Origin: Patescibacteria group bacterium
Lineage (GTDB): Bacteria > Patescibacteriota > UBA1384 > XYA2-FULL-43-10
DNA: 32,000 bases
Assembly: GCA_041674405.1 (NCBI GenBank)
Contig: JBAYVT010000005.1
Location: 30,001-62,000 of the forward strand
Direction: 5' to 3'
A program made the translations under genes and the position numbers. Position 1 is the stretch's first letter. Each line of letters opens with the position of its first letter. Below are positions 8,502 to 27,459 of the stretch, one piece after another. The notes under the pieces were generated by a model. It was not told the DNA's origin and made no database searches. It saw only the letters and a list, made by a program, of their open reading frames with translations.

Positions 8502-11500
8502 TTAGAGTTGTACAGCTTTGCCCTCTTCTAGATCATCTGCGCTACTATTGTCTTTGCTTGCGGTTAAGCTCCCGTCATCTTTTTCGTCGACGACAGAGGT
8601 CCTAGTCGGTACTGGTTTTATTTCCGGAGCAATTTCAAGGCTGGTACTCTCCCCGACCGGTACCACAGAATTCTCTTCTTTCAAAATGCCAACATTATTT
8701 ACAACGGAGACATCCTTTTTTGTAGAATTTCCACCCTTGTTATTTTGGGGCTTATTTTTTTCTTTTTTCTTTTTTCCAGTCCCCTCTTTTTTATCTTCTT
8801 TTTTCAAGGAATCTTTTATCTTCTCATTCAATTCAATCATTTTGAGGCCGGCGGGTGTAATTTCCACCCCTGTTTCTGCCATTTTTTCTTCATCAATATC
8901 TTCACCCATGTACCATTTCACTCCGCCCCTGGCGGTTTGCTCTTTATAGATTTTATCTCCGATAATGTTTTGATATCTAAAAATGCGAGGTTTGCTTTCC
9001 TTCGCCTCAGCTGAATCAGCCTCCTCCTCTTTGGGTTCGGATTGCTCAACAACTTTCTCCGGTAATTCTTTTTCAATAACAGGCTCTGCTGAGACGGGTT
9101 TTGGTGCTACTTTTGTTTCCGTCGGTTTTTCCTCGGCCTTTTCTGCGGGTTTATATTCTTCAATACCTGGGGCAGTGATCGGTTTTTCTTCTGGTTTTTT
9201 CATTGTCAAAAGAGCTTCAAGGCCGCCTTCTTTAAACGCTTCGGCCTCTTTCTTTGCCTCCTCCTGTTCCTTTTTTCCGCGGTCTTCTATCGCCTGCTCC
9301 ACCTCCCCTCGTGTTGCAGAATATTTTTTATGGGACAGATCAATAATTTTCTCGGCATTGCCAGTAAGTTCCATCCGTGGAGGCAAAGTTCTGGCAGAAA
9401 ACGCTGGAGCAGAAACACCATCTATTAAAAGCTTGATGTATATGTTGAACTTATCCAAATTCACCAAATCATTAGCATCAAAAACCGGTTCGAATTCTTT
9501 TACTAGATAATCGGCGTCTGTCCCGCCAACCCTAAAGGAAATAATCGTACCAGCATTGCCGAAAACCGCGTCTCTCACCTCTTCCGGCATTTGGGTAATG
9601 TATTGGTTGGCGATATTTAGGTTAAGATGATATTTTCGAGCTTCAGACAAGATCACAGCGAAAGACTCAGTCGCAAAATTCTGAAACTCATCAACATAAA
9701 GATAGCAATCAGGTCTTTTGTCAACAGTGACATCGGCGCGGCTCATTGCAGCAAGCTGAATTTTTGTAATAAGCATTGCCCCCAGTAGCGCAGAGTTATC
9801 CTCACCTATTTTACCTCGAGACAAATTGACCACCATTATTTTTTCTTCATCCATAATTTGTCGGATATCTAGCGTAGATTTAGGCTGGCCAACGATATTT
9901 CTAATTGTAGCTGTTGACAAAAACTGGCCGACTTTATTCAAAATCGGCGAAACCGCCTCGGTCCTGAACTTGCTGTCGTATTGTGCAAATTCCATAGTCC
10001 AGAACTCGCGAATAACGGGGTCCTTCACCGCCTCAACAACTCTTTCGCGAAATCTTGTTTCAGTAAGCATTTTTGGAATATCAAGCATTGTTGAGTTCGG
10101 ATAATCAAGAAGAGCAAGGACAGTATTGCGAAGTATATGTTCAAGCCTCGGTCCCCAGGAATTTCCAAAGATCTTTTTGAAAATACCGACGAATCCGGAT
10201 GCGACCATTCCCTTAAAATCATCTTCCACATGTTCCAGAAGGTTAAATGCAATCGGGTAAGCTCTATCAGCCGGATCAAACACAACCACATCTTCAACTC
10301 GATTATCGGGGACGCAAGCTAATACTTTTTCTGCAAACTCACCATGTGGATCGACGATTATTACTCCCCTATTTTCAAGAACATCATCAACCGCCATATT
10401 CTCTAAAAATACTGATTTACCCGTACCAGACTTACCAATTACATATATGTGTCGCCTGCGATCATCCCGTTTGATACCAAAACGCCGATGGATATTTCGA
10501 AAAGTTGTCTCCCCTATTACTGTCAAATCTTCAGGAGGGGTATTTTCCGAAAGTGGCAAATTCGCTGGCGGCTCCCCTTTCTTTGATCCGGACCAGACAA
10601 TATTGGGCGTCTCTACCGATTTGTGGGGAAAGTGATAAAGAGATGCGAGTTCTCCGATATTGAAAACATATCCCTCATCCTCAAACACTCTGCCACAATA
10701 ATCTTGCCAAAATTCATGGTGATCGATTTCGATATCGCCGCTCTTGAACCCATTTAGATTTGTGGTGTTAAACTGCTTGAAAGCCGCAGCAATGCTCTGG
10801 GTTTTAACCTTCGCCGATACTTCATCTTGCGAAATCGACATAATTCTAATCTTGGTAGCAAATCCGAGTTTCATGATTTTCATTTCGATGGACTTAAGGG
10901 CATCTTCGACAGTTCCTGGGAGCTCTACCTTATTTTCACCGGGAGCCGCGATTTCCGCTCCAGGGGTAACGGCCTGAACAAAAATCATTTTCAAAACGTT
11001 GCCGAACATACCAAAGATCTTAGAGATTACACCACCTGCTCCCTGTTTCTTGCCGGAGCGCACAGCTGAAATTAACTTATTTCCCCTATCCTGCCACTCA
11101 TCCCCCACCGGACGAATCAAAATTTGCATCCAGACTTGTTCGCCAGGGTTCAATTTTGACATTACCGAGGTAATACCAGATATCGGGTCAACTTCAAAAT
11201 CAGAGAAAAGCTTAATCGGATAAACATCTGGCTTGGTCACTTTTAGCTCCGTTCCGGCAAAATGCACCTTGCCATCTCCAATTTCGGAAATATAATCAGA
11301 AACTTCATGAATTTCAACCGTCGGATATTGAGCATAAACTTGTCCCTCCACAAATTCCTTTAAGTGTTTCGGGACAAATACATAAAACTGAATATATTTA
11401 TCCTTTGCAACAATCTCAAAAGACATATGGTTTTGAAAGAGAGCATTCTCCGAATAAATGCCATGAATCGAAGCAAACATTTGCTCAGCAGCAAGCGGTG

Positions 11501-11663
11501 CTTTTTCATTGTTTCTAGGAACATCAATTCTGATTATTGTGTATTCCTGGGACGAAAGCCACGAAAGGCGCCGTTCATTTTGGCGAATCTTAAAAAACTG
11601 CAAGAGTGTATATACTCCCCCCAGAATTAGCACTAAATATAAGAAATATAAAAATATTGCCAT
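8502..11663 (-). CDS. Membrane-anchored VirD4/TraD/TraG-like (type IV coupling protein-like) P-loop ATPase, paralog 1. It has a roughly 380-aa N-terminal domain of unknown function and a roughly 280-aa E/K/P-rich C-terminal tail.
   Basis: One N-terminal TM (IFLYFLYLVLILGGVYTLL). Walker A IGKSGTGKSVF; DPHGEF; Walker B CYLYVDEFQNF (the DEF-type box is typical of T4CP/TraG); NQY...; RVGGTDADYL. It is collinear with the 847-aa paralog over the N-domain and the ATPase. The tail carries a poly-Lys block. Confidence 0.75.
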   Translation of the reverse strand: MAIFLYFLYLVLILGGVYTLLQFFKIRQNERRLSWLSSQEYTIIRIDVPRNNEKAPLAAEQMFASIHGIYSENALFQNHMSFEIVAKDKYIQFYVFVPKHLKEFVEGQVYAQYPTVEIHEVSDYISEIGDGKVHFAGTELKVTKPDVYPIKLFSDFEVDPISGITSVMSKLNPGEQVWMQILIRPVGDEWQDRGNKLISAVRSGKKQGAGGVISKIFGMFGNVLKMIFVQAVTPGAEIAAPGENKVELPGTVEDALKSIEMKIMKLGFATKIRIMSISQDEVSAKVKTQSIAAAFKQFNTTNLNGFKSGDIEIDHHEFWQDYCGRVFEDEGYVFNIGELASLYHFPHKSVETPNIVWSGSKKGEPPANLPLSENTPPEDLTVIGETTFRNIHRRFGIKRDDRRRHIYVIGKSGTGKSVFLENMAVDDVLENRGVIIVDPHGEFAEKVLACVPDNRVEDVVVFDPADRAYPIAFNLLEHVEDDFKGMVASGFVGIFKKIFGNSWGPRLEHILRNTVLALLDYPNSTMLDIPKMLTETRFRERVVEAVKDPVIREFWTMEFAQYDSKFRTEAVSPILNKVGQFLSTATIRNIVGQPKSTLDIRQIMDEEKIMVVNLSRGKIGEDNSALLGAMLITKIQLAAMSRADVTVDKRPDCYLYVDEFQNFATESFAVILSEARKYHLNLNIANQYITQMPEEVRDAVFGNAGTIISFRVGGTDADYLVKEFEPVFDANDLVNLDKFNIYIKLLIDGVSAPAFSARTLPPRMELTGNAEKIIDLSHKKYSATRGEVEQAIEDRGKKEQEEAKKEAEAFKEGGLEALLTMKKPEEKPITAPGIEEYKPAEKAEEKPTETKVAPKPVSAEPVIEKELPEKVVEQSEPKEEEADSAEAKESKPRIFRYQNIIGDKIYKEQTARGGVKWYMGEDIDEEKMAETGVEITPAGLKMIELNEKIKDSLKKEDKKEGTGKKKKEKNKPQNNKGGNSTKKDVSVVNNVGILKEENSVVPVGESTSLEIAPEIKPVPTRTSVVDEKDDGSLTASKDNSSADDLEEGKAVQL

Positions 11664-11708
11664 CCTGATACCAATTTTATCATGAATTGCACTTTAATTA
11701 AAAGTGAA

Positions 11709-12731
11709 TTATGCCAGGATATATTTACTTGATCCAATTTTCTTAAATTCGCTTTGGTTTTGCAGATTGATAAGAACTGTATTTTTTCTTACTTGGCGTT
11801 GTTTCAAAACTTCCTTGTAAATATCTGAGAAATCCATAGCGCCGTCTTCCTGCTTCAAAACGGCAATTATGATATCTTTAACCGTTCCCGGGGCGTATCC
11901 CCACTCTTTTAGTGCGTATATGCCGCGGCCAATCAACACAAAACGAGCGTCGGCAATGAGTTCGTTGTGAACAGTTGCGGGAACTACTTTTTTCTTATCA
12001 AATTGTTCTTCTGAGATTACCTTTGCAATATCGGTAAAATGCATCGGTTTTTTATTTTTGCGAAGAACGTAGTAAATTTTATCCCTGACCGTTCTTGGGT
12101 TGACTTCCGGCCATTCGGAAAGACCAAGAGATCCTTCGTAGTCCTCAACAATTTTTTTTGAAATTCTCGGCAAATATGACAAAAATGAAATTTTATGAAC
12201 TTTGTGATTCGGGTGTGCATCAATTAATATATCTAACTTTTGGGGGCTTTTCTGTTTCTTTAAATAATTTGCCCAATCGCGAAGAATTTTAATTACTTCA
12301 TCTTTGGATAAATCATTCAAAATCCAGCTTTCATGTAATTCGTCATGTTTTTCGATTGCTTGAACTTCGGGAACAACTTTAATAATCAAGTTCAACGAGT
12401 TTATTTCCTCGTCTTTTGCAAGAGCCTGGCTTTCTAGTACTTTCGCCGCTATATCCTCTTTGTGAATAATACCTTGTGTTTTGATTTCTCCCAAAATGTC
12501 ACCGGCAAGAGCAGAGTTCTCTTCGGCAATATACTTAGCAACTTTTTTAAGCCCTTCTTTTTCAATTTGCCTGATTCTTTCTCGCGATAGGTGCAAATCT
12601 CTGCCAATAGATGATAGAGTTCTCCCCCTGCCATCAATTCCGAAACGACCACGAATGACCAGGGCTTCTTTTTCTTTAAGCCCTGATGTCGCCTTGTCAA
12701 TAATAGTTTTTGCCGACCTGATTTTTTCCAT
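11709..12731 (-). CDS. Sigma-70 region-4-like HTH followed by two HARE-HTH-like modules (putative transcription factor / RNAP-associated protein)
   Basis: N-terminus LKEKEALVIRGRFGIDGRGRTLSSIGRDLHLSRERIRQIEKEGLKKV is a region 4.2 signature. C-terminal MHFTDIAKVI ... HNELIADARFVLIGRGIYALKEWGY resembles the HARE-HTH of RpoE (delta subunit). A second, weaker copy is MDFSDIYKEV ... NQSEFKKIGSSKYIL. Confidence 0.65.
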   Translation of the reverse strand: MEKIRSAKTIIDKATSGLKEKEALVIRGRFGIDGRGRTLSSIGRDLHLSRERIRQIEKEGLKKVAKYIAEENSALAGDILGEIKTQGIIHKEDIAAKVLESQALAKDEEINSLNLIIKVVPEVQAIEKHDELHESWILNDLSKDEVIKILRDWANYLKKQKSPQKLDILIDAHPNHKVHKISFLSYLPRISKKIVEDYEGSLGLSEWPEVNPRTVRDKIYYVLRKNKKPMHFTDIAKVISEEQFDKKKVVPATVHNELIADARFVLIGRGIYALKEWGYAPGTVKDIIIAVLKQEDGAMDFSDIYKEVLKQRQVRKNTVLINLQNQSEFKKIGSSKYILA

Positions 12732-12742
12732 CTTGTTTCTTT

Positions 12743-13240
12743 CTAGATTAGATTATCAACCGCAGCCCAGACTGATTCCTGGTCTTTTGGAACAATTATT
12801 CCAAGGCTGTCCCCTGTTTTGGCTTTAAAATATGTTACGGAAGCTAAAAGAACTTTGTACTTTTTTCCTTCAACATCGACTTGATATTCGCCGTCACCAG
12901 TTTCTTCCAATGTGCCAATCAAGTTCTTTCTGGGAACGGGACCGATTTGCTTGTAAACAAACTTGCCATCCTCAGAAATGGTTAGCTTGAGAATATCTCC
13001 CTCAATGAGCTTTGATTTTGACGCATAATTTGGCGGAACTTGATAGGTTTTTTTATCAGAAGAAATCATTTTTTCACCATCAAAAACTCCCTGAATTACC
13101 TCCCCATCATCTTCTGTTTCAAGTAGTGTCGCTTTTTTGTTTATTTCTGATGCGAAAAGTTTCGATTTGATAGCCCTGATCTGGTTCTCACAGGAATCAA
13201 GCAATTTCCTTATTTCTTCAAGATCGTTTTTGGCGACCAT
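12743..13240 (-). CDS. Hypothetical protein with an N-terminal helix and two beta-rich (SH3/KOW-like?) modules
   Basis: Start moved to Met25 (ATG 13240, preceded by gaaagg). The first 24 listed codons overlap a near-consensus promoter. I recognise no family. Confidence 0.55.
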   Translation of the reverse strand: MVAKNDLEEIRKLLDSCENQIRAIKSKLFASEINKKATLLETEDDGEVIQGVFDGEKMISSDKKTYQVPPNYASKSKLIEGDILKLTISEDGKFVYKQIGPVPRKNLIGTLEETGDGEYQVDVEGKKYKVLLASVTYFKAKTGDSLGIIVPKDQESVWAAVDNLI

Positions 13241-13283
13241 ATTGGCCTTTCGTTTTATTTCAGTTTTGCTATTCTCAGCTATC

Positions 13284-13312
13284 ACATTACCACAATAATG
13301 AACTTGAGTCAA
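13284..13312 (-). promoter_or_regulatory. Candidate internal promoter (TTGACT-17 nt-TAATGT)
   Basis: Minus-strand ttgact at 13312-13307, a 17-nt spacer, taatgt at 13289-13284. It sits about 45 nt upstream of ATG 13240. Confidence 0.5.
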
Positions 13313-13330
13313 CGTTTTTGCCGCTAGTTG

Positions 13331-13393
13331 TTAGTTTCTAGTTTCAGGAAAAACTCAATAATAAAATCAAGCCTTCTACAAACTAGAAACTGG
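13331..13393. repeat. 12-bp perfect inverted repeat (agtttctagttt / aaactagaaact) with a 35-nt spacer
   Basis: Arms at 13333-13344 and 13380-13391, extendable by two G-U pairs. It lies between the stop of the 847-aa ATPase (13411) and the promoter at 13284-13312. Confidence 0.85.
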
Positions 13394-13410
13394 CTACTAG
13401 AAGCTATCTG

Positions 13411-15954
13411 CTATCCCAATACTCCCTTAATGTTTCCCTCACCAATACCAGGAAGATCAATTACATCTACTTTTGACCTATCGCGAATTTCTTGGTCAAC
13501 TATTTCGCGGGGTTTGCCATACTTTAATCGGGACAATTCAACCATAGCACTTCCCAATTTCTTGTTTTCGTTTTGATCAGGAGCAACGCTTGCCGCGTTA
13601 AACGGCCTCGTTGGCGCTCCGTCAATAAGCATTTTGATATAAAAATTGTATTTATCAATTGTCGTCATGTCGTCGATTTTTAATGGATCAAACTCTTTGA
13701 TAAGAAATTCAGCATCGACGGCCCCGATCCGGAAAGCCACCAACGTGCCGGCGTTTCCCATAACAGCATCTCTGATTTTTTCATCCAATTGCGCCACATA
13801 CTGGTTTGTAATATTGAGCGAAAGTTTATATTTTCTAGATTCAGAAAGGATAGTTGCAAACACATCCGTGATAAAGTTTTGAAACTCGTCCACATAAAGA
13901 TAAAACGGGGTTCTGTCTTTTTCATTTGTGTCCTGCCGCGAAAATGCTCCCATTGCAATTTTGGATACAATTATCATTCCAAGAAGAAAAGCATTTATCT
14001 CCCCTATCAATCCCTTTGATAGATTGCAAATCAATATCTTTTTTCCATCCATAACTTCTCGAAAGTCGAAGGCTGATTTATTTTGGCCAATAATATTTCT
14101 CATCATGTCATTGGTCATAAATCGTCCAAATTTCGAAGTAAAATAGTTCAACATTTCTGACTTGTGAAAATCTGAAGTTTTTGCCATTTGTTTTTGCCAA
14201 AACGCCTTAACGACAGGATCTGTAACATTTTTCACGCACTCTTTTTCAAAATCCGGATCAGTAAACAGCCTAGGAATGTCAACGATTGTGCCCCCTTCTG
14301 GCTGAACCATTAAGGTAAGGGCGGCATTCCTCATCCAATGTTCGAATTGCGGGCCCACAATGCCGGTTTGGCCCGGATCAAACAATTTATAAAACATCTG
14401 AATTGTTTCCTGAACCAAGAAATCTCTCTGCTCCGGTGTCTTCCACTCAAGCATATTAAGCCCCATCGGCCGTTCAATATCCGCCGGGTTAAAATAGATG
14501 ACGTCTTCCGCCCGTTCTTTGGGGATGCGGTTTAATATGTATTCAGCAGCGTCGCCATTCGGGTCAAGATATGCCACTCCCCGGCCTTCGCGGATGTCTT
14601 GCATAATCATGTTTTCAAAAAGAACGGTTTTACCAACGCCGGTTTTACCAATCATATATATATGGCGTAGCCGATCTTCTTCTTTTATTCTGACCGGCTT
14701 TGTTTCTCCACGATAAATGCTGTTGCCAATAATCGTTCCTTCGTCTGGCAGATTTGAAGGCGGAGCCTGTCTTTTTGCCAAAAGCCAAGCGACATTTGGC
14801 GTTTCGACAAATCTATTTGGCATGTGAATTATCGAGGCCAACTCTTCTGTGTTTAAAATCATTTTCAAACCAGCGCCGAAAATCCTAAAAATATAATTTC
14901 CCACTTCCCTACCCTTGTTTTTAGCTTTTTTGGGAAGAATGTTATTTGAGTCCGGTGCATTAAATTGGGAAAACGCACTAGCAATATTCTTTGCATTTAG
15001 CTTCGCTTCTTCGGCCGTTTTTGCAACCGCCACAATCCTAACTTGAACATCAAACCCTATCTTTGCCGCTTTTTCTCCTAAAAGTTTTACCTGCGCTTCT
15101 TGCATCGGCGTCTGCTTATACGGGTTCTGTGGGTTATACATTGGATCATGCTGGCCATCTTTGTCACCAGGTTTTACCGCATTGTTGCCAACTTTTCCAA
15201 TAAAATTAAAGAAGGTTTCTGTCGCCCTTACGGTTTTATTATTAGAATACGAAAGCCTGGTTTTGCCTTGTTGGATATTGTAGGCCGCTTTCTCTGAACC
15301 CACTCGCCAAACCTGATTGTTTGGACGGATCATGACTTGTATTCCCGCTGACTCATCTTCGGACAATTTGGAAAGCGAATTGGTGATTGCATTCAGGGGG
15401 TCTTCCTCCAGATTTTTATATGTCCGAATTGGAAAAATATATCTGCGAGCAAGGATCAGTGTTAGAATTTCGATAGGCAGGGGCTTATCTGGAAAAATCG
15501 AGTAATCAAGATCGCGATCGATATTTGCTTCAGGATATTGCGCATGCAGGTTTTTCTCCACAATCTCAGCAATTGTCGTAGGGCAACCGATATAGAAAAA
15601 TATTTTGCCGTTTTTTGCAATTATCTCCATAGAAATGTGGTCTTGGCCCGTAATGGATTTTTTTAAATCTTTGTCAAACAAAGAGTTTATGCTGGCATAG
15701 AAAGGTTCAATCACAGAAAGCATCTCCTGAAAATTTTTGCGCTGGTCATCTTCACTGGCGTGTGGCTCCTTCGGCACGGAAACTCTAAGCATAGTCCAAT
15801 CTTCAACCAATTCAAGCTGTTTTCTGTGCAAAAATGCATTACGAATTTTTTTATACAGAAAACTGATTACAATGATGATTGCTATTATTGCGAGAGGCCA
15901 AATCCACCAAGGCGCCCCTCCTCCGGTATCGTAATAATTGGGATCTGAATACAT
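13411..15954 (-). CDS. Membrane-anchored VirD4/TraD/TraG-like P-loop ATPase, paralog 2
   Basis: One TM (WWIWPLAIIAIIIVISFLY). N-domain matches to paralog 1 include SMEIIAKNGKIFFYIG vs SFEIVAKDKYIQFYVF, and ELASIIHMPNRFVETPNV vs ELASLYHFPHKSVETPNI. Walker A IGKTGVGKTVL; DPNGD; Walker B FYLYVDEFQNF; NQY; RIGAVDAEFL. Confidence 0.75.
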   Translation of the reverse strand: MYSDPNYYDTGGGAPWWIWPLAIIAIIIVISFLYKKIRNAFLHRKQLELVEDWTMLRVSVPKEPHASEDDQRKNFQEMLSVIEPFYASINSLFDKDLKKSITGQDHISMEIIAKNGKIFFYIGCPTTIAEIVEKNLHAQYPEANIDRDLDYSIFPDKPLPIEILTLILARRYIFPIRTYKNLEEDPLNAITNSLSKLSEDESAGIQVMIRPNNQVWRVGSEKAAYNIQQGKTRLSYSNNKTVRATETFFNFIGKVGNNAVKPGDKDGQHDPMYNPQNPYKQTPMQEAQVKLLGEKAAKIGFDVQVRIVAVAKTAEEAKLNAKNIASAFSQFNAPDSNNILPKKAKNKGREVGNYIFRIFGAGLKMILNTEELASIIHMPNRFVETPNVAWLLAKRQAPPSNLPDEGTIIGNSIYRGETKPVRIKEEDRLRHIYMIGKTGVGKTVLFENMIMQDIREGRGVAYLDPNGDAAEYILNRIPKERAEDVIYFNPADIERPMGLNMLEWKTPEQRDFLVQETIQMFYKLFDPGQTGIVGPQFEHWMRNAALTLMVQPEGGTIVDIPRLFTDPDFEKECVKNVTDPVVKAFWQKQMAKTSDFHKSEMLNYFTSKFGRFMTNDMMRNIIGQNKSAFDFREVMDGKKILICNLSKGLIGEINAFLLGMIIVSKIAMGAFSRQDTNEKDRTPFYLYVDEFQNFITDVFATILSESRKYKLSLNITNQYVAQLDEKIRDAVMGNAGTLVAFRIGAVDAEFLIKEFDPLKIDDMTTIDKYNFYIKMLIDGAPTRPFNAASVAPDQNENKKLGSAMVELSRLKYGKPREIVDQEIRDRSKVDVIDLPGIGEGNIKGVLG

Positions 15955-16039
15955 TCGGAAATTTCTAATTTCTAATGACCAATTTTTTAATCCCTAAATT
16001 TTTTAGTTATTAGATTTTAGTTATTAATTATTAACTAAA

Positions 16040-17635
16040 TTATGCCGCTTTTCTCAGTTGCTCTTCTTCCGATGCTTCGCGTCTTGCATCCGCCGCCATT
16101 TCTTCAATATCATGAACCTGTTTTGATGACACTTCGGAAGAACGAGCTAGGCCAGCCGCCCAATTTCTGAACCGGGCAGATAACGGCAATTTCGGCCCGC
16201 TAGCTTGTTTCTGTGTGCCTATGGGAATTTCACGGCTAGACTGAGAAGAAATATCCACCGGCTGAATCTCCCCTATGACACCTTCTTTCTTTTTATCTTC
16301 TGTCGGCTCAATAATTTTAGCATGCGGTTCTTTTTCAAGGGTAGGCAGGGGCCCCGGTTCCGCTTCAACGCTGGCCACAATATGATCTTGCGGTACCTCT
16401 ACCAATTTTACTTCATCCTTTTTAGCCTGAATGTCTCCACTTTCCACTTGTTCATGTCCTTCTGCTTCTGTCTGATTTGGCAATACGGGCTGTGTTTCAA
16501 TAACAGGGGCTTCTGTTCTTGGCAGAGGTTCTTCTTCTACATTATCAATTGTAATATTACCACCGGTATTATTTGCCTCATTTATTAACTTAAGGGCCTT
16601 TTCTCTTGCCGGATTTACAAATTCTGGAGCGCTGGCCTTTATGCGACCGCTAGCTGCCGGTTTTTCTCCGCGCAATATTCTAATTTCTTTGCCCCCATCA
16701 AGTGTTTCCGCGTCTAACTCTTTTTTTGGTTTTAAGGTCGGATCCAAAGGTTTGGCCGCTGGAGCTTCTGCTAACGGCTGATCCATAAGGCCATCAAGTT
16801 CTTCCACGACCACTGCCGCAGAATCATCAGCCCCACTGGCTGCATCCTTTGCTTGTTGTTCTGGATCAAGATTTCTGGCCCCTGAAACAGGCTCGTCTTC
16901 ATCACGAAGTTCAATTGCTGAAACTTTGGGAGCTTGGGGCAACGAGTTTTTTATTGCTTTAACGGCGATCTCCAAATTTTTACTATGGTCCAATCCCCTT
17001 TTGTTAAGATCGCGCCTAGCAAGATCCTTGTTTACAACATCGCTTTTCGGAGGCAAGTCTTGGTCAAATTTCTCTATTCCTCCGGAAACGTTTCTGCCCT
17101 GCTCACTTAGCACTCCCCCATCTGGACCAATTGAAACAATTTCCTCCACTTTGGCTGGGCCTTTGGGTAATTCTTCACGAGCGACCTCAGGCTCAACCGC
17201 AGGCTTTGCAACCTCTGGTTCCAATTCATCTGGACCGAGATATTCCAATTTGGGCCGCGAAATCTCTTCGGCTGGCTTAGCTTCTTCAGGTTCTATTCTC
17301 GTCGAAGCAACTGGCTCCGGATCAATTTTTTTTCTTCCCGCCATCCTTTCAAGCCGCAATCTAACCCTCTCCGGAACGGATATCGGAGTTTTCGCCTCAG
17401 CGTGCACGTCTGTTTCAGCCATAGAAATCGTGACATCTGTACCTTCAGTTGTATCGTCTGGGCCAATCATATATTCATTCAGTAAGGCTCTTTTTTCCTC
17501 AGGTGAAGCACTTGCCAATCTCTCTTTGAGATGCAAAAACAAACCAACATCAGGCTCTTGATGTTCGGAATTTGAAAATGCCTGGGCAATGCCGATTAAA
17601 CTTCCATCCTTCTTCTCGGGGTCACTACTTGCCAT
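16040..17635 (-). CDS. Acidic, Pro/Glu/Lys/Ala-rich low-complexity protein, predicted to be largely disordered, with no TM or signal peptide
   Basis: A 531-aa ORF in the operon orientation whose start overlaps the upstream stop by 11 nt. It has repetitive EPEVAKPAVEPEVAREE-type segments. I recognise no family. Confidence 0.6.
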   Translation of the reverse strand: MASSDPEKKDGSLIGIAQAFSNSEHQEPDVGLFLHLKERLASASPEEKRALLNEYMIGPDDTTEGTDVTISMAETDVHAEAKTPISVPERVRLRLERMAGRKKIDPEPVASTRIEPEEAKPAEEISRPKLEYLGPDELEPEVAKPAVEPEVAREELPKGPAKVEEIVSIGPDGGVLSEQGRNVSGGIEKFDQDLPPKSDVVNKDLARRDLNKRGLDHSKNLEIAVKAIKNSLPQAPKVSAIELRDEDEPVSGARNLDPEQQAKDAASGADDSAAVVVEELDGLMDQPLAEAPAAKPLDPTLKPKKELDAETLDGGKEIRILRGEKPAASGRIKASAPEFVNPAREKALKLINEANNTGGNITIDNVEEEPLPRTEAPVIETQPVLPNQTEAEGHEQVESGDIQAKKDEVKLVEVPQDHIVASVEAEPGPLPTLEKEPHAKIIEPTEDKKKEGVIGEIQPVDISSQSSREIPIGTQKQASGPKLPLSARFRNWAAGLARSSEVSSKQVHDIEEMAADARREASEEEQLRKAA

Positions 17636-18029
17636 CTTTGACAGGTGCCTTTCTTAAAAGCTCGTCCTTAATATCCATGAGCTCTTTTAGGATTTTATCT
17701 TCATATCCCGGAATATTTGCTTTCACAAAATCGTTAATCTCAGCCGCATCCGCTTTTTGGGCAATTTCCGAAAATTCCGCAACTTTGCCCTCCGGCAGAT
17801 AAAGCATAATTACATTGAGAATTCTCGCGTTAACGAGCTCCTCCATCTTCTTTTCTACCTGTTCTCTTTCAACATCTGAGATACCGGAGTTCTTGCCAAA
17901 TCCAAGATCCTCCATTAATCTCTCTTTGTACATTTGAATGGTGGCAGCAACATCGGCCTTATCGCCGCTAGATTGGTCCGAATTTGCATCGTTCATATTT
18001 GTTTGTAGATTGTCATCCAAATCGGCCAT
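17625..18029 (-). CDS. Small acidic helical protein, reminiscent of the short acidic ORFan families common in CPR genomes
   Basis: Strong RBS (ggaggg, then 3 nt, then ATG). The core LMEDLGFG ... ISDVEREQVEKKMEELVNARILNVIMLYLPEGKVAEFSEI ... INDFVKANIPGYEDKILKEL resembles a family I recall as a Patescibacteria DUF. This is unverified. Confidence 0.6.
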   Translation of the reverse strand: MADLDDNLQTNMNDANSDQSSGDKADVAATIQMYKERLMEDLGFGKNSGISDVEREQVEKKMEELVNARILNVIMLYLPEGKVAEFSEIAQKADAAEINDFVKANIPGYEDKILKELMDIKDELLRKAPVKDGK

Positions 18030-18047
18030 ATTCCCTCCAATATATAA

Positions 18048-20516
18048 TTATAATGTGACTTTGCTAAAATATGAAAATTCCATCGCCTTAAGGGAAGACT
18101 CGTCAAGACTGACAGGGGTTCCAAAAGTTCCGGTAGCCGGGTCAAACGGCTTGAATTCGAAATTTGGGGCAGTAAAACTATCAAGTTGCAAGAATCTTCC
18201 AAATGAGCTTGCATACAACACACAATTACTCGCATAACCAGCGCCAGCTAAAGATTTTAAACTATCGACGAACTTATCCTTCTTTTTGTCTGTAATTCCG
18301 AATTTACCCTCAAGATTGTAATCATCCCCGCTCACATTTATATATGCATCAACTTCCCAGATTAGATCTTTGCCATCTTTATCGACATCTAGAATAACTA
18401 CATCAATATCTGCACCCGAAGGCAACATTGCAAGTTCGGCGATCCTTGGTGATTTGACAATCATCTTTTTGCTCGGAGCACCTTTGCTTACGCCAGTAAG
18501 GATATAATCACCGCCGAGCCTCTTTAGCTTTCCGGTAAACTTCTTGCCCAGATATTTTTCATAAGCTTCTTTATCAAATTCTTCTTCTGGCTCTATTTCT
18601 GGTGACGAACCTCTCCCTCTTGAAACAACATTGACTAAATTCCTATCAATAGTTCCTTCGGCAGTAAGTATGTCATCAAGTGAAAATTCCGGATGCGGAT
18701 TTACAGGCGTTGGCCCAGATAATTTTTTCCTATCCGCTTCCGTCATCTTAAATACAAGCCTGCCACTTGCATCAATATCGGTAATTTCAAATCTTCGGTC
18801 TCTTGTACCGATAACATATCCGGCAGGCAATGTGGTAAACATGACTGTCGCCCCGATCAGTTCTTGCTTTACATTTTCTTTATTTTCTTTAGTCTTGTCT
18901 CGCTTTTCTGCCTGCTTTTCCGACCGGTTCTCGGCATTTTCTTTGCGCCGGACATCTTTTGCTTCATCTGTAAGCCTTCTTTGCGCCTTTTCATTGCCCC
19001 TTTGGGCTTTATCAATACCCAAATATCCGGCAACAGCAGCCACTCCTACGCCTCCGGCAATTTTCGCCATAAGAGAAGCAGAAGCTGCATCAGCTGAAGA
19101 ATTGTGTGCTAAATCCAAGAAATCGGTGGCAAGCGAAGGATGGGAAAGAATAAAATGTTGAATATCAGGCGGGAAGGAAAGAAAGGTTTCCTTGTTGTCC
19201 ACAAGAAACTGGCCAAATTGTCCGCCATCCGGCATCGCCACTGACAAGTCTAAATTCGAATGGTCGGCAAGATTAAACATTTCGTGCAGATTGCCGGATT
19301 GAAGATATTGATTGAATGTGGCCTCATAGGTCGGGCCTAGTCCGGTGGCCTGATCAAACCCAAACAGAGCTCGATCCCCGCCAAATTCTTTAATTGCATT
19401 TATGTGTCCAACCATATCGATATGCTCAGGCGGAACCATGCCTTGTCCCATATCTTGGTTGTAAACATCAAAATTATTTTGCATCGTTTGGAAGTGTTGT
19501 AAATCTTCTTGGTATGCGGCATCAGTTAGTGATGCTCTCTTCGCATCCAATGCGTCATGGAGCACTTGCTCGTGAGACTGGGTGTGCAAAATATGCTCCG
19601 AAATCCAATCGTTCACCCCATGCATGCCGCCATGGTGTTGAGCATAGTCAACGACTGTTCCAATTACGCCTCCAAACGCCGCGCCAACCATTGCGCCCTT
19701 GACCGCAGTCATAATTTCCGCTTTGCGCTTTAATGCAAATATTTGATCATAGGTTTCTCTCGTCTCTTCTGAAGCCATTCTGGCTATCTCTTTAGATTCA
19801 TCTCCCGCATCAGCTAAAGCTTGGTCTATGCGCGACATAACCGGATTTAGCTCTTTATTCTCGGCCAATCTTTCGTTTCTACGATCTCTTAGAACTTCCT
19901 TCATCAATCGATATTTTGAAATATATTCGAGTTTGGCTTGTGCATTTCCACGCACATTTCTCGCATCCATCGCATTTTTCATAATACCAAGAGCAGTGTA
20001 TAAATCAGCTTCAGTCATCTTGGACATATCTGTTTTGCTCTTCGAAAGTATATCAAGGTTTGCCATCCAGGTAGCTGCAGATTCCTGCTGATTTCGGCCT
20101 CGCATCCAACCCCAAAATCCGCCGGCAGCACCACCACCAACTGCACTTGCAGCAGGGCCTGCGAGATGTAGTCCGGCACGCACACCTGTCCGTATTGCCA
20201 TACCCACGCCAACAGAGCCGACCATTCTGCCTGCCCAGTTGTTCCATACACCATTCCAAGCACCACGAATACCGCGCCGGGATGCGATTACTTGCAAAAG
20301 AATATTTGCATCAGAGTCCATTTCGGTCAAAATCGCCCTTACTGCCTCAGGATTGCGCAGCATCTCTGCGTGTTCTTTGGCAGCATCTTGCTCCACTAGG
20401 GTTCTTGGCTTCGCAAAACCATAGCTCGATCCCCAATCGTCTCGGTCGATAATACTACCGACTCGCTCGGCAATATCTTCGTTTACATCGGTGCGCCTTT
20501 CACCTCGTGTAGCCAA
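18048..20516 (-). CDS. Large hypothetical protein with three Gly/Ala-rich hydrophobic (glycine-zipper-like) segments, a K/E/R-rich linker and a beta-rich C-terminal domain
   Basis: The ORF is open from GTG 20534. However, agGGAGGgaaaTTG places a strong SD 4 nt before TTG 20516, the same geometry as the next gene's GGAGGgaatATG. Hydrophobic segments: GSVGVGMAIRTGVRAGLHLAGPAASAVGGGAAGGFWGW; AVKGAMVGAAFGGVIGTVV; IAGGVGVAAVAGYLGI. Confidence 0.6.
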   Translation of the reverse strand: MATRGERRTDVNEDIAERVGSIIDRDDWGSSYGFAKPRTLVEQDAAKEHAEMLRNPEAVRAILTEMDSDANILLQVIASRRGIRGAWNGVWNNWAGRMVGSVGVGMAIRTGVRAGLHLAGPAASAVGGGAAGGFWGWMRGRNQQESAATWMANLDILSKSKTDMSKMTEADLYTALGIMKNAMDARNVRGNAQAKLEYISKYRLMKEVLRDRRNERLAENKELNPVMSRIDQALADAGDESKEIARMASEETRETYDQIFALKRKAEIMTAVKGAMVGAAFGGVIGTVVDYAQHHGGMHGVNDWISEHILHTQSHEQVLHDALDAKRASLTDAAYQEDLQHFQTMQNNFDVYNQDMGQGMVPPEHIDMVGHINAIKEFGGDRALFGFDQATGLGPTYEATFNQYLQSGNLHEMFNLADHSNLDLSVAMPDGGQFGQFLVDNKETFLSFPPDIQHFILSHPSLATDFLDLAHNSSADAASASLMAKIAGGVGVAAVAGYLGIDKAQRGNEKAQRRLTDEAKDVRRKENAENRSEKQAEKRDKTKENKENVKQELIGATVMFTTLPAGYVIGTRDRRFEITDIDASGRLVFKMTEADRKKLSGPTPVNPHPEFSLDDILTAEGTIDRNLVNVVSRGRGSSPEIEPEEEFDKEAYEKYLGKKFTGKLKRLGGDYILTGVSKGAPSKKMIVKSPRIAELAMLPSGADIDVVILDVDKDGKDLIWEVDAYINVSGDDYNLEGKFGITDKKKDKFVDSLKSLAGAGYASNCVLYASSFGRFLQLDSFTAPNFEFKPFDPATGTFGTPVSLDESSLKAMEFSYFSKVTL

Positions 20517-20544
20517 TTTCCCTCCCTTATTCACGCATAGAATA

Positions 20545-20603
20545 ATTATAGCAAAAACAATTGGGAATGAAACCCGATTCTTTGTACAAAATTATTGTAG
20601 CAA
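20545..20603 (-). promoter_or_regulatory. Two tandem extended -10 elements (TGcTATAAT and TGcTACAAT) upstream of the 828-aa gene
   Basis: Minus-strand tgctataat at 20553-20545 and tgctacaat at 20602-20594. Both -35 regions are weak (tttcat / ttgttt). Confidence 0.45.
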
Positions 20604-20624: not shown

Positions 20625-20651
20625 AAAAAACGGCCGCCCGGAGGGCAACCG
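20625..20651 (-). terminator. Intrinsic terminator of the GC-rich cassette gene
   Basis: Minus-strand cggttgccc-tcc-gggcggccg is a 9-bp stem with two G-U pairs, which are mismatches on the plus strand. It is followed by tttttt (20630-20625). Confidence 0.65.
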
Positions 20652-20712
20652 CTTTTGCGTGCGATCATTTTGTACTTCTTCCCAGTATGATCAAACTGGG
20701 GAATGTAGCACG

Positions 20713-21555
20713 TTACGGTCTCGTACCAGTGCTTCGGAAGCGAATGCCCCCGATGCGAACGCGGAACTCGTAGTTAGTCCCGGCAGGAGCCTGCTGTTCC
20801 CACTCTTCCCACAGGTTACCAGCCATGCGAACGATATTCGGCCAGAACAACCATACCAGCAGGCCGATAACACCTCCGATGACCAGGACCAGGACCGCCC
20901 AGCGCCAGACCTCCCCTCTGACCTGAGCGCCCGTCATAGGCGGCGCAGCCGGGGCCTGGACGGCCGGCATGATCGTAGCAGGAGCGACAGGTACCGGCAC
21001 GGACGGAAGCGGCGCGATCTGCGGCTGGGCCGCAGGGGGCGCCAAGGGGGCGGCGGCCGGGGCCTGCGGAGTCTGGACCGGCGCAGGTGTCGTGGCAGTG
21101 GGCGGGGCGGTGGGAGCAGAAGCAGGATCGGTCTTGGTCGGCGCATCCGTCGTCTTGAGGACATAGCGCTTGTCCAGCTGGCCCTGCGTCTTGTAGCCCC
21201 AATCCTGCAACCAGGCGTTGGAAGCGGTCTGTCCCGCAGGGGGCAGCCCGTTAATCCCATGCTGCTCCAGGTTATCTACCCGGCCACCCAGGGCGTTGAG
21301 CTGCCCCTGGAGGTGGCTGATGTTCCCAGACGCCCGGCGGGCACGGGGAACATCGCGGTGGATCGTGGCCTGAGCTAGCTCCTGCCTTGCGGTGGCAAGC
21401 TGGCCCTGCAGGCTGGCGATCTCGGCGTCCTTCGCCGCGATCTGCGCGGCGTTGTTGGTCGGAGCCGGAATCGGCCCCTGTGCCAAGACGGCGCAAGCAG
21501 ACAAAACGACCAGGAACAAAACGGCTATCAGGTTGTGGGTGGTGAAGTTTTTCAC
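20713..21555 (-). CDS. GC-rich foreign-looking envelope protein: lipoprotein-type signal peptide, coiled-coil, Pro/Ala-rich linker, C-terminal TM helix and a short basic tail
   Basis: GTG start preceded by agagagg plus 5 nt. N-terminus MKNFTTHNLIAVLFLVVLSAC contains an LSAC lipobox-like motif. Coiled-coil AKDAEIASLQGQLATARQELAQA ... LQGQLNALGGRVDNLEQ. A PA-rich stretch follows. TM WRWAVLVLVIGGVIGLLVWLFW. Third codon positions are strongly G/C-biased, unlike all neighbouring genes. Confidence 0.6.
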   Translation of the reverse strand: MKNFTTHNLIAVLFLVVLSACAVLAQGPIPAPTNNAAQIAAKDAEIASLQGQLATARQELAQATIHRDVPRARRASGNISHLQGQLNALGGRVDNLEQHGINGLPPAGQTASNAWLQDWGYKTQGQLDKRYVLKTTDAPTKTDPASAPTAPPTATTPAPVQTPQAPAAAPLAPPAAQPQIAPLPSVPVPVAPATIMPAVQAPAAPPMTGAQVRGEVWRWAVLVLVIGGVIGLLVWLFWPNIVRMAGNLWEEWEQQAPAGTNYEFRVRIGGIRFRSTGTRP

Positions 21556-21577
21556 TTCAACCTCTCTTTCTGCCCTT

Positions 21578-21605
21578 CTCGAGGGCTATCGCAATAGCGC
21601 TCGAG
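21578..21605 (-). promoter_or_regulatory. Stable hairpin with a UGCG (UNCG-class) tetraloop, about 20 nt upstream of the cassette gene's SD
   Basis: Minus strand: cucgagcgcuau-UGCG-auagcccucgag. This is a 12-bp stem with one mismatch. Confidence 0.4.
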
Positions 21606-21797
21606 GTCGGACAGGTATTTGTCTTCCTCGGAGCAATGTATCTGCCAGCATTCGCGCCAGAATAATGATCACGCCAGAATTACGCTGATCTTGCATTCAC
21701 ATTGCTTCGAAGAAGTATATATTGTTAAGGTGCCATCGCTCTCAGTATCCCACTTCGCTACGCTCCGCGGGATTATTAGGCTAAAGCCTAATAAAAA

Positions 21798-22011
21798 GTG
21801 CGATAAGGTGCTGTACAACAACACGGGTGGAGGGGGAACCCATGGCTCAAACGACGAATCGTTTGAATGTCATACAGCACGCTACCGCACTAATATTTCA
21901 GGAAAGTGTGCGACATTGTGCCGGATAGCAGTCACAGGCGGAGGGGGAACCTGTGTCTCGATATGTTTCCGAAGAAACAATCAAGAAAGCTATCCAGCAC
22001 GATGTCGCACA
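21798..22011 (-). ncRNA. Tandem pair of three-way-junction structured RNA elements in the 5' leader of the GC-rich cassette. I recognise no family, and the strand assignment is tentative.
   Basis: Unit 1: closing helix 21798-21820 with 21868-21890; hairpin A 21822-21844; hairpin B 21848-21865. Unit 2: closing helix 21907-21927 with 21991-22011 (21 positions, 1 wobble, 1 mismatch); hairpin A 21933-21955; hairpin B 21965-21978. Plus-strand loops are conserved (A = GGAGGGGGAA, B = CGAA) while the stems differ with compensation. On the minus strand the B loops read UUCG, and a TTGACA-17-TGcTACAAT promoter points into the region. Confidence 0.55.
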
Positions 22012-22068
22012 ATGTTGTAATTTCCCTTCCAAGAGCTTAAGATCCCTCTCTCACCCTCGGAACACGCT

Positions 22069-22097
22069 ATTGTAGCATATACTATAAATTTTGTCAA
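22069..22097 (-). promoter_or_regulatory. Near-consensus sigma-70 promoter (TTGACA-17 nt-TGcTACAAT) driving the GC-rich cassette
   Basis: Minus-strand ttgaca at 22097-22092, a 17-nt spacer ending in tgc, tacaat at 22074-22069. It lies in AT-rich sequence at the cassette edge. Confidence 0.6.
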
Positions 22098-25289: not shown

Positions 25290-25832
25290 TTATTTCAATT
25301 CAACTGTTGCGCCGGCTTCTTCAAGCTTCTTCTTGGCGGCTTCAGCATCTTCTTTTTTCATGCCTTTAGCAAGCTCTTTTGGAGCGCCGTCAACTAAATC
25401 TTTGGCTTCTTTAAGACCAAGATCGGGCTTGATTTCACGCACAGCCTTAATAACTTGGATTTTCTTGTCTCCGGCTGAAGCAAGAATTACGTCGTATTCC
25501 GACTTCTCTTCCGCTGCTTCTGCTGCACCGGCACCACCAGCTGCTACTGCGCCGGCCATTGCGACTGGGGCAGCTGCAGAGACACCAAATCTCTCTTCAA
25601 GCTCTTTGACAAGTTCTGAAAGCTCAAGCACGGAAAGATTCTCAATCTCTTTAATAAGATCTTTAAATTTGCCGGATGGAGCTGGTTTTTCAGCTTTTTC
25701 TTCCGCTTTTGGCTCTTCTTCTTTGGCCTCTTCTTTAGCTTCCTCTTTGACTTCCTCGGCCGGGGCTTCGGTAGTCTCGGTTTCTTGCGTTGCCTCGACG
25801 GCAACTTCTTCTTTTTTCTCTTCGTCTGCCAT
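25290..25832 (-). CDS. rplL: 50S ribosomal protein L7/L12 with a roughly 50-aa acidic N-terminal extension
   Basis: The canonical L12 sequence begins at [30 protein letters not shown] ... and ends at [14 protein letters not shown]. It is preceded by [54 protein letters not shown]. Strong RBS (aggag, then 5 nt, then ATG) at 25832, and no in-frame start near the canonical N-terminus. Confidence 0.9.
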
Positions 25833-27366: not shown

Positions 27367-27430
27367 TTTTCTCCTTATGTGGTCAAGCGACCGCCCGAGG
27401 CGGCCTCCCACTAAATTAATTAACACAAAA

Positions 27431-27459
27431 TTTATATCAAAAAAAACAAGAATGTTCAA
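27431..27459 (-). promoter_or_regulatory. Candidate rplA promoter (TTGAAC-17 nt-TATAAA)
   Basis: Minus-strand ttgaac at 27459-27454, a 17-nt spacer, tataaa at 27436-27431. It is followed by a GC hairpin (ggccgcc-tcg-ggcggtc, about 27383-27401) in the leader, which might be an L1-binding element. Confidence 0.45.

Follow-up and report, generated by a model that had tools for sequence, protein, structure and literature searches.

What is the role of two membrane-anchored ATPases that resemble type IV coupling proteins (T4CPs) at a locus that encodes no recognisable secretion channel? The question is raised by a stretch of 32,000 nucleotides from a metagenome-assembled genome of the Patescibacteria (GenBank assembly GCA_041674405.1, contig JBAYVT010000005.1, positions 30,001 to 62,000; hereafter, the window), in which a train of seven genes on the minus strand encodes ATPase 1 (A1 type) and ATPase 2 (A2 type). 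An earlier note on this DNA had proposed that the train is an uncharacterised envelope translocation or DNA-transfer system. We conclude that the two ATPases represent a catalogued but uncharacterised class of orphan VirD4-like motors of the Patescibacteria, and not a new system. New here are the VirB4-like N-terminal domain of these proteins, their division into A1 and A2 classes with private partners, a conserved block of genes in Berkelbacteria-type genomes, and a structured RNA at its head; none of these amounts to a new class of system. With somewhat better than even confidence, we propose that the ATPases are two substrate-specific coupling motors that, with dedicated adaptors, serve a type IV secretion system (T4SS) encoded elsewhere in the genome.

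Two orphan VirD4-like motors

ATPase 1 and ATPase 2 are paralogues (36% identity over 793 aligned columns, E 7e-166). In both, the Walker A motif (GK[ST]G.GK[ST]) is intact and the Walker B motif reads YLYVDEFQNF. Each protein has a single N-terminal hydrophobic helix followed by basic residues. In ATPase 2 this helix spans residues 18-49 of the AlphaFold2 (AF2) model and is preceded by a short external N-terminus. Behind the helix, on the cytoplasmic side of the membrane, both proteins have a domain of the family DUF8128 and a hexameric T4CP-like motor with an all-alpha, substrate-binding domain, and ATPase 1 ends in a disordered, charged tail of ~260 amino acids.

By sequence and by fold, the motor belongs with the coupling proteins. 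ATPase 1 matches TrwB_AAD_bind (24.1 bits against a cut-off of 20.5) and DUF87 (33.7), and ATPase 2 matches TraG-D_C (23.1 against 22). Among 50 diverse family members searched with Pfam, TrwB_AAD_bind was found in all 50, TraG-D_C in 49 and T4SS-DNA_transf in 31; AAA_10 matched weakly in 13, and CagE_TrbE_VirB was without a match in the family. A search of PDB sequences with the family profile recovered TrwB (5e-9) and DotL (3e-7), and no VirB4 chain. In the AF2 model of ATPase 2 (predicted local distance difference test score, pLDDT, 80.5), residues 507-636 form a helical insert that corresponds in place to the all-alpha domain of TrwB, and Foldseek aligned the model with TrwB at E ~4e-11 (TM-score 0.60-0.64 normalised to TrwB, ~430 columns). 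The profile phrog_5156 covers ATPase 1 (6e-93) and ATPase 2 (4e-100) over ~770 of its 824 model positions. NCBI names for the family include 'type IV secretion system DNA-binding domain-containing protein'. Alignment, Pfam and AF2 modelling thus bear out the description, given in the earlier note, of two paralogous T4CP-like ATPases with one transmembrane helix and an unusual shared N-terminal domain.

Genes for VirB4, VirB6, a relaxase, a pilin or a secretin were identified neither in the window, where our Pfam scans agree with the earlier note, nor within ~8-10 kb past either of its ends on the same contig. We found no published description of this combination of genes, so in that respect the train is as unfamiliar as it had been thought to be. 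The ATPase family itself, however, is already catalogued as DUF8128 and as PHROG 5156, and falls within a 2025 survey that counted 5,713 VirD4 homologues in 2,918 Patescibacteria genomes, or about two per genome (PMC12102498). Such homologues are near-universal in the phylum. In a neighbour-joining tree of 50 representatives, A1-type and A2-type sequences form two deep clades, which fits this copy number and makes them ancient paralogues.

The deposited gene call for ATPase 1, with 1033 amino acids, leaves out the 20 codons that begin with the ATG at 11663 (window positions 11604-11663) and, with them, the N-terminal membrane helix. The 1053-amino acid start is supported because this helix is kept in the orthologues of two other loci (L003 and L005; loci compared with the window are cited by such handles). 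The tail of ATPase 1 (window 8502-9290) is poorly conserved except for its last ~nine residues, [LI][EK]xG[EKQ]x[IV]x[LF] (LEEGKAVQL in the window), which are kept out to the most distant A1 loci (L115, L117, L118, L119 and L027). The tails of close relatives also have a common internal block, FRYQNIIGDKIYKEQTARGGVKWY. A disordered tail with a conserved terminal peptide is reminiscent of F TraD, the tail of which binds TraM.

A VirB4-like N-terminal domain

The N-terminal domain common to both ATPases (~350 amino acids, residues ~45-400) is Pfam PF26449/DUF8128. The assignments are precomputed annotation, and are present for both ATPases and for every listed homologue. In a library of 1.84 billion representatives, the domain occurs in ~1,700 clusters at 50% identity (E <= 1e-3). 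It always lies at residues ~40-400, and the complete proteins measure ~780-1,100 amino acids or longer.

When full-length ATPase 2 was compared with PDB structures using Foldseek, the best matches were full-length TrwK/VirB4 chains, not TrwB (E 1e-14), with a collinear alignment over ~940 columns. The N-terminal domain modelled alone (pLDDT 80.6, predicted TM-score 0.81) had significant matches solely to 14 TrwK/VirB4 chains (E 6.5e-6 to 2e-4, probability 1.0), and the next-ranked matches were at E >= 1e-2 and TM-score ~0.19. As modelled, DUF8128 shares the fold of the VirB4 N-terminal domain, a likeness at the level of fold only (TM-score 0.41-0.49). The domain that the earlier note had singled out for structural comparison can thus be placed in a known fold and in a Pfam family, although that family is itself without an assigned function. 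We found no paper that describes the VirB4-like nature of DUF8128, and literature on the family gave nothing directly relevant.

Relatives outside the Patescibacteria

A tblastn search with the N-terminal domain found 29 plasmid records, chiefly haloarchaeal megaplasmids plus Priestia and Pontibacillus replicons, and three Bacillaceae phages. The corresponding PHROG 5156 is annotated as 'unknown function'. In Bacillus phage G (L125), gp156 is a full-length, collinear homologue (25% identity over 779 amino acids, E 1e-56), and just upstream are genes for a TrbL/VirB6-like protein (gp153) and a VirB4-like ATPase (gp155, with P-loop_TraG and AAA_10). Geobacillus phage TP-84 (L122) has a VirB2/TrbC-like membrane protein, below the Pfam cut-off, directly upstream of the ATPase. 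In Bacillus phage vB_BcoS-136 (L126), the order is LytM hydrolase, ATPase, and then a Replic_Relax protein and a tyrosine recombinase. Bacillaceae phages of both large and small size thus have a miniature T4SS-like module. A Halorussus limi plasmid (L127) encodes a T4SS pilin, several proteins of no assigned function, a 1092-amino acid ATPase, a 376-amino acid DUF8128 protein and a true T4CP of 1007 amino acids. There, the stand-alone DUF8128 gene overlaps the start of the T4CP gene (11788-15931), and this pair amounts to a naturally occurring split form of the protein that is fused in Patescibacteria.

Given these contexts in phages and plasmids, we view DUF8128 as a companion module of coupling proteins, found with them in the T4SS-like systems of archaea and monoderm bacteria. 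Its taxonomic footprint is the same as that of the MPF-FATA class, from which the 2025 survey derives the Patescibacteria T4SS (PMC12102498). The spread of the domain over Bacillaceae phages, haloarchaeal plasmids and Patescibacteria independently mirrors the monoderm/archaeal origin proposed for that T4SS. The motors of the train remain uncharacterised, as the earlier note had held; however, the presence of the same family inside T4SS-like clusters elsewhere argues for membership of type IV secretion, and not for an unrelated translocation system.

A Pontibacillus plasmid (L128, 9845-15156) encodes a stand-alone DUF8128 protein, an Mbov_0395-type pilin-like conjugal protein and a large DUF87 ATPase. 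Also in this region is a gene for a 277-amino acid, sigma-factor-like helix-turn-helix (HTH) protein with regions 2 and 4, a loose parallel to the HTH partner of ATPase 1 described below.

Two modules joined in one lineage

A search of genome contigs with a single protein returned only close, Berkelbacteria-type relatives. In these, a core of ATPase 2, the 165-amino acid protein, a protein with sigma-70 region 4 and HARE-HTH domains (sigma-r4/HARE-HTH) and ATPase 1 is nearly invariant. In dozens of genomes the block has the same genes around it, the TGT/ribosomal genes at one end and DUF1290-SecFD at the other. Shorter arrangements also occur: ATPase 2 followed directly by ATPase 1 (L027, L034, L035, L038 and L114), or ATPase 2, the 165-amino acid protein and ATPase 1 (L028, L036 and L037).

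In 80 distant metagenomic loci (37-51% identity), the A2-type ATPase is alone among housekeeping genes. Its neighbours there include GyrBA and NrdR-RNR, as well as genes for a XerC-like recombinase and an FtsB-like protein; in many of L055-L106, one of these last two or GyrBA is only a few genes away. Distant A1-type ATPases (45-52% identity) stand alone beside division and cell-wall genes, either FtsQ, Ddl, MurB and MurC, or MurG, FtsW, MraY, a penicillin-binding protein and MraZ (L115, L117, L118 and L119). Because the ATPases are unlinked in distant lineages, each with a partner, the seven-gene train is a juxtaposition, made in the Berkelbacteria lineage, of two older modules. One consists of the sigma-r4/HARE-HTH gene followed by ATPase 1, and the other of a small or disordered protein, ATPase 2 and the 165-amino acid protein. 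The gene order, the conservation of which the earlier note had set as a check, is kept in the Berkelbacteria-type lineage only. We found no paper describing the A1/A2 split with private partners, or the Berkelbacteria block. The division-gene neighbours of unlinked A1 and A2 genes may reflect mere housekeeping density or hint at a division-linked role.

Partners of the two ATPases

The 340-amino acid protein encoded next to ATPase 1 matches Sigma70_r4 at residues 17-64 (1.3e-13) and HARE-HTH (1.7e-14). It has two HARE-HTH winged helices and a central helical region, and residues 217-277 match TIGR04567, the RNA polymerase delta subunit, at 45.3 bits (cut-off 42). The matches to HARE-HTH and region 4 are its likeness to delta and to sigma-70. 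Unlike these, it combines two HARE-HTH domains with an unassigned central region, lacks an acidic delta-type tail and is genetically tied to a membrane ATPase. Region 4 was the only sigma region detected with Pfam and NCBIfam; without region 2, the protein was ruled out as a sigma factor. Its domains are of the kind that binds DNA or RNA polymerase. Among 36 loci, 27 have its gene directly before A1, and two more have it there masked by spurious open reading frames (ORFs). The 27 include all four stand-alone A1 loci (L115, L117, L118 and L119), where it lies 1-98 nt upstream. The domains recognised in the earlier note are thus confirmed. The protein, which the note had called a dedicated transcription factor, is not a regulator specific to this operon: it neighbours A1 even where A1 stands alone. 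No directly relevant literature was found on HARE-HTH with sigma domains.

On the side of ATPase 2, the 165-amino acid protein has an N-terminal helix and two small beta domains. It has no Pfam or PDB sequence match, yet it is not the ORFan that it had been taken for: its family is present in 39 loci, and occupies the position directly following A2 in 36. Where the flank is long enough to judge (94 loci), these 36 divide into 26 of 29 close and 10 of 65 distant loci.

The genes upstream of ATPase 2 are far more variable. Two layouts recur. One consists of a small protein with two transmembrane segments, a protein of the 828-amino acid family, DUF5663 and an acidic disordered protein. The other consists of the small two-segment protein, DUF5663, a giant acidic protein (740-2,040 amino acids) with one transmembrane segment, and more acidic proteins. 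The 822/828-amino acid protein of the window has three Gly/Ala-rich hydrophobic segments, which are glycine-zipper-like, and a beta-rich C-terminal part. Its family occurs in only 11 loci, at 27-34% identity. In a word-indexed database of 5.8 billion proteins it matched only itself, and it has no match in Pfam, NCBIfam, PADLOC or PHROG. The 134-amino acid protein is acidic and helical, as noted earlier, but it can be assigned to a family, DUF5663 (PF18908 in precomputed annotation; E 0.0028 in our Pfam search), which is represented in 26 loci, always ahead of A2 (gene positions -2 to -7).

The 531-amino acid protein directly upstream of ATPase 2 is acidic (20%), rich in proline (9%) and disordered. 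Iterated searches found no sequence homologues of it. In 28 Berkelbacteria-type loci, the protein at this position is always acidic (11-23% D+E) and disordered. The positional orthologues have in common only a short amphipathic motif, G[FW][FWL]x[KR][LI]FGG, ~45 residues from the C-terminus (FRNWAAGLA in the window), and 12 of the 28 end in -AA. In distant loci, the gene directly before A2 encodes a small protein. These proteins fall into several families, each specific to a lineage, and every family has a conserved amphipathic helix at the C-terminus. Profile-profile comparison detected no relationship across lineages among these small proteins, nor among the large upstream proteins. It is only by position and short motifs that the upstream proteins may be grouped as one family. 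Judged by their conservation, the terminal peptide of A1 and the C-terminal motif of the upstream proteins are features expected of recognition peptides.

Comparison with known systems

The ATPases resemble T4CPs (VirD4/TrwB/TraD/TraG; PF02534, PF10412, PF12696) in Walker A, in the DEF-type Walker B, in the all-alpha insert, in TraG-D_C and in the TrwB-like fold (TM-score 0.63). They too are anchored in the membrane at the N-terminus, but by a different topology, with one transmembrane helix instead of the classical two, and a VirB4-like domain of ~350 amino acids lies between the anchor and the motor. Relaxase and channel genes are lacking nearby, and each genome has two chromosomal, vertically inherited paralogues.

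The order of N-terminal domain and C-terminal P-loop motor is that of VirB4/TrwK (R388), and the N-terminal domain matches VirB4 chains only. However, there is no VirB4 match at the level of sequence, and the ATPases have T4CP motor signatures, an all-alpha domain and a transmembrane helix of their own. Moreover, Patescibacteria have a separate, bona fide VirB4 (PMC12102498).

A further parallel in architecture is with the phage and plasmid DUF8128 proteins (PHROG 5156), relatives without a known function in which the same N-terminal domain is paired with a motor. Those are encoded on mobile elements beside VirB4-, VirB6-, pilin- or relaxase-like genes, whereas the genes described here are on the chromosome, in two copies and away from any such genes, and are paired with sigma-r4/HARE-HTH and the 165-amino acid family.

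Proposed function and alternatives

In the mechanism that we propose, the VirB4-like DUF8128 would dock each motor onto an inner-membrane translocon, most likely that of a distant chromosomal T4SS, and ATP hydrolysis would drive transfer. The partner proteins would be adaptors, or would themselves be substrates, recognised by the motors via the all-alpha domain or the tail. ATPase 1 would handle nucleic-acid-bound cargo, with the sigma-r4/HARE-HTH protein as its nucleic-acid-binding adaptor, analogous to the relaxosome accessory proteins that TraD binds. ATPase 2 would handle protein cargo, and the 165-amino acid protein and the upstream proteins with the C-terminal motif would be its adaptors or its cargo. 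A T4SS cluster without a recognisable coupling protein has been described in Patescibacteria (PMC10633639).

Several observations weigh against this proposal. There is no T4SS channel gene within ~48 kb around the locus, and the NCBIfam equivalogs of coupling proteins score far under their cut-offs (CD1115, 47.8 against 250; SXT_TraD, 59.4 against 366). The adaptor and substrate roles are drawn from gene linkage alone. Just 148 of the 5,713 VirD4 homologues in the 2025 survey are near virB4, and the homologues occur in 2,918 genomes, compared with 2,417 for VirB4 (PMC12102498). A VirD4 homologue in S. epibionticum is dispensable, whereas the T4SS is essential (PMC12102498). This could be due to redundancy between the paralogues, such that one copy may be lost, or to an independent function; the survey states that exaptation of the Patescibacteria homologues 'cannot be ruled out' (PMC12102498).

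An independent function could take the form of autonomous export, in which the motors, the glycine-zipper protein, the small two-segment membrane protein and DUF5663 would constitute a T4SS-independent translocon. Its cargo would be the fast-evolving, acidic disordered or giant proteins of the upstream genes, which would act as effectors at the cell surface or on the host. We consider this unlikely, while granting it appreciable weight. The region upstream of ATPase 2 always contains fast-evolving acidic (180-2040 amino acids) and membrane proteins. The protein directly upstream keeps its short C-proximal motif and often an -AA end, as a secretion signal would; VirD4 homologues, as stated above, occur in more genomes than VirB4 does and are hardly ever encoded near it; and the fold of the N-terminal domain is the one that contacts the membrane complex in VirB4. 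However, conservation of the membrane proteins extends to 11 loci and no further, we recognised no channel-forming family, and in most lineages ATPase 2 is found among housekeeping genes with one small partner. Relatives elsewhere, moreover, co-occur with classical T4SS parts. A bolder form of independence, which we rate as rather unlikely, would make the DUF8128 ATPases a third branch of type IV motors, in which a docking domain of the VirB4 type is retained on a motor of the VirD4 type, with A1, A2 and their adaptors self-sufficient, independent of a T4SS channel and underlying exchange with the host. It is with the same reserve that we suggest, within such a scheme, that A1 would move nucleic acid bound by sigma-r4/HARE-HTH, and A2 fast-evolving acidic proteins with a C-terminal signal.

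The ATPases belong to the FtsK-HerA superfamily. In view of the division-gene neighbours, a role as membrane-anchored DNA translocases in FtsK-like handling of the chromosome or nucleoid at the septum, with sigma-r4/HARE-HTH as the DNA-recognition subunit of ATPase 1, was weighed; we give it a small probability. Lone A1 genes adjoin division and cell-wall genes, many A2 loci are within a few genes of the XerC-like recombinase, FtsB-like protein and GyrBA, FtsA and FtsZ are encoded ~12 kb to the left on the same contig, and the partner of ATPase 1 is composed wholly of HTH domains of the DNA-binding type. These tiny genomes are, however, packed with housekeeping genes, and only a few lineages account for the neighbourhoods that recur. 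The FtsK_SpoIIIE match is marginal (30 of the 50 members, best E 0.0045), whereas T4CP families match every member, and the family lacks both the gamma domain and the multiple transmembrane helices of FtsK, having only one helix. No DNA-binding signature is seen in the partners of ATPase 2, and relatives are found in T4SS-like clusters. Replacement of FtsK was kept as a minor rival only, given that ftsK is annotated separately in strain TM7x and that T4CP signatures dominate; no directly relevant literature was found on FtsK in the candidate phyla radiation. Highly improbable, in our view, is that the block is a mobile-element remnant (a decayed prophage module or integrated conjugative element) or an anti-phage defence of the HerA/MADS kind. 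The PADLOC model mad8 matches the two motor domains (1.9e-16 and 1.9e-10), HerA models match more weakly, and full-length homologues occur in phages and plasmids. However, the block has the same flanks in dozens of genomes, both paralogues are inherited across the whole phylum, only one Pro/Ala-rich gene departs from the base composition of the surroundings, and no integrase, nuclease, methyltransferase or relaxase was identified in the window or ~8-10 kb to each side. The defence reading was rejected on this context, NurA also being absent from the neighbourhood.

The locus offers candidate adaptors, substrates and interaction surfaces for the orphan VirD4-like motors. It turns two open questions, the cargo of the essential Patescibacteria T4SS and the role of orphan VirD4 proteins, into specific experiments. 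It also provides leads on how tiny epibiotic Patescibacteria choose their secretion cargo, and overturns nothing that is known.

A structured RNA and a small membrane protein upstream

The conserved block extends upstream beyond the point at which the earlier note had begun the train, and includes a co-oriented unit at 20626-22097 (Table 1). This unit encodes two tandem structured RNAs and a 280-amino acid, Pro/Ala-rich protein. The protein explains a local rise in G+C from 40% to 53-59% at 20.5-22 kb. Sequence homologues were identified only in L015 and L018, but in most related loci the first gene of the block encodes a positional analogue of 200-400 amino acids with two hydrophobic segments.

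The predicted fold of the 500-nt leader in front of the 280-amino acid gene is much more stable than those of shuffled controls (z-score -10). Each RNA is Y-shaped, with a 22-bp basal stem, a variable hairpin and a hairpin with the invariant loop GGUUCCCCCUCCGCC, usually followed by a U-run. The CCCCCUCC loop is C-rich and anti-Shine-Dalgarno-like. The loop motif was also found at 12 further loci, and an alignment of 17 copies has compensatory changes at 18 of 30 pairs. A covariance model found 24 same-strand copies in 18 Berkelbacteria-type loci, and none in the distant loci L034-L100. Gene maps of ~10 of these 18 loci place the copies upstream of the block, just before the small membrane-protein gene. 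Rfam had no match to the RNA, and we found no paper describing it. It may be a small RNA with this C-rich loop, or an attenuating leader. A conserved RNA at the head of the block provides a handle on its regulation.

Genomic setting and features

The window is an ordinary chromosomal stretch of its genome (ENA ERZ27247358, contig k141_1464549, 395,669 bp), with a G+C content of ~40%. Housekeeping genes are found on both flanks of the train: an AddA-like helicase, RmuC, an RluD-like protein, SecD/SecF and DUF1290 on one, and TGT, L7/L12, L10, L1, Pth, YbaB and a release factor on the other. The seven ORFs were confirmed at the coordinates first reported, and the spacing between them (18, -11, 85, 170, 11 and 45 nt) agrees with the description of co-oriented genes with mostly tiny or overlapping gaps.

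Table 1. Features of the train and of the unit upstream of it, and some of the copies of the structured RNA at other loci.
Feature	Position	Strand	Remarks
Sigma-70-like promoter	22097-22069	-	Best match of the region; TTGACA-17-TACAAT with TG, 11/12; match to consensus only
Two tandem structured RNAs	22014-21899, 21894-21789	-	~105 nt each
280-amino acid protein	20713-21555	-	Pro/Ala-rich; signal-like N-terminal helix, coiled coil, C-terminal transmembrane segment
Intrinsic-terminator-like hairpin, strong	20656-20626	-	Between upstream unit and train; 14 pairs, 7 GC, T-run
Extended -10-like box	20602-20594	-	TGcTACAAT; before the 822-amino acid gene; candidate read from the sequence
Extended -10-like box	20553-20545	-	TGCTATAAT; before the 822-amino acid gene; candidate read from the sequence
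822/828-amino acid protein	18048-20516 (822); 18048-20534 (828)	-	TTG 20516; GTG 20534
134-amino acid protein	17625-18029	-	
531-amino acid protein	16040-17635	-	
ATPase 2	13411-15954	-	A2 type, 847 amino acids
165-amino acid protein	12743-13240	-	Mechanical ORF extends to 13312
340-amino acid protein	11709-12731	-	
ATPase 1	8502-11663	-	A1 type, 1053 amino acids
Intrinsic-terminator-like hairpin, weak	8450-8431	-	3' of ATPase 1; 6-bp stem, 4 GC pairs, then T-run; match to consensus only
Further RNA copies	L003 4549-4756		
Further RNA copies	L004 3964-4234		
Further RNA copies	L013 310-584		
Further RNA copies	L015 4205-4565		
Further RNA copies	L018 2131-2236 and 3562-3666		
Further RNA copies	L025 786-1246		

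The weak terminator that the earlier note had placed at the end of the train was found as a hairpin. The extended -10 promoter that it had placed at the start can be read as two boxes, which are pattern matches only. Both are absent from the output of the consensus promoter scan, which demands a -35 hexamer, and they are plausible promoters. The start of the 822-amino acid protein at TTG 20516, used by public gene calls, sits behind a GGGAGG Shine-Dalgarno sequence, and is more likely than the start at GTG 20534.

Among the flanking ribosomal genes, two ORFs on the minus strand are longer than their relatives. The L7/L12 ORF (window 25290-25832) encodes 180 amino acids with Pfam domains that begin at residue 57, compared with 121-138 amino acids in relatives. 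The L1 ORF (window 26575-27459) encodes 294 amino acids with a domain that begins at residue 121, compared with 263-288 in relatives. Both have either N-terminal extensions or mis-set start codons.

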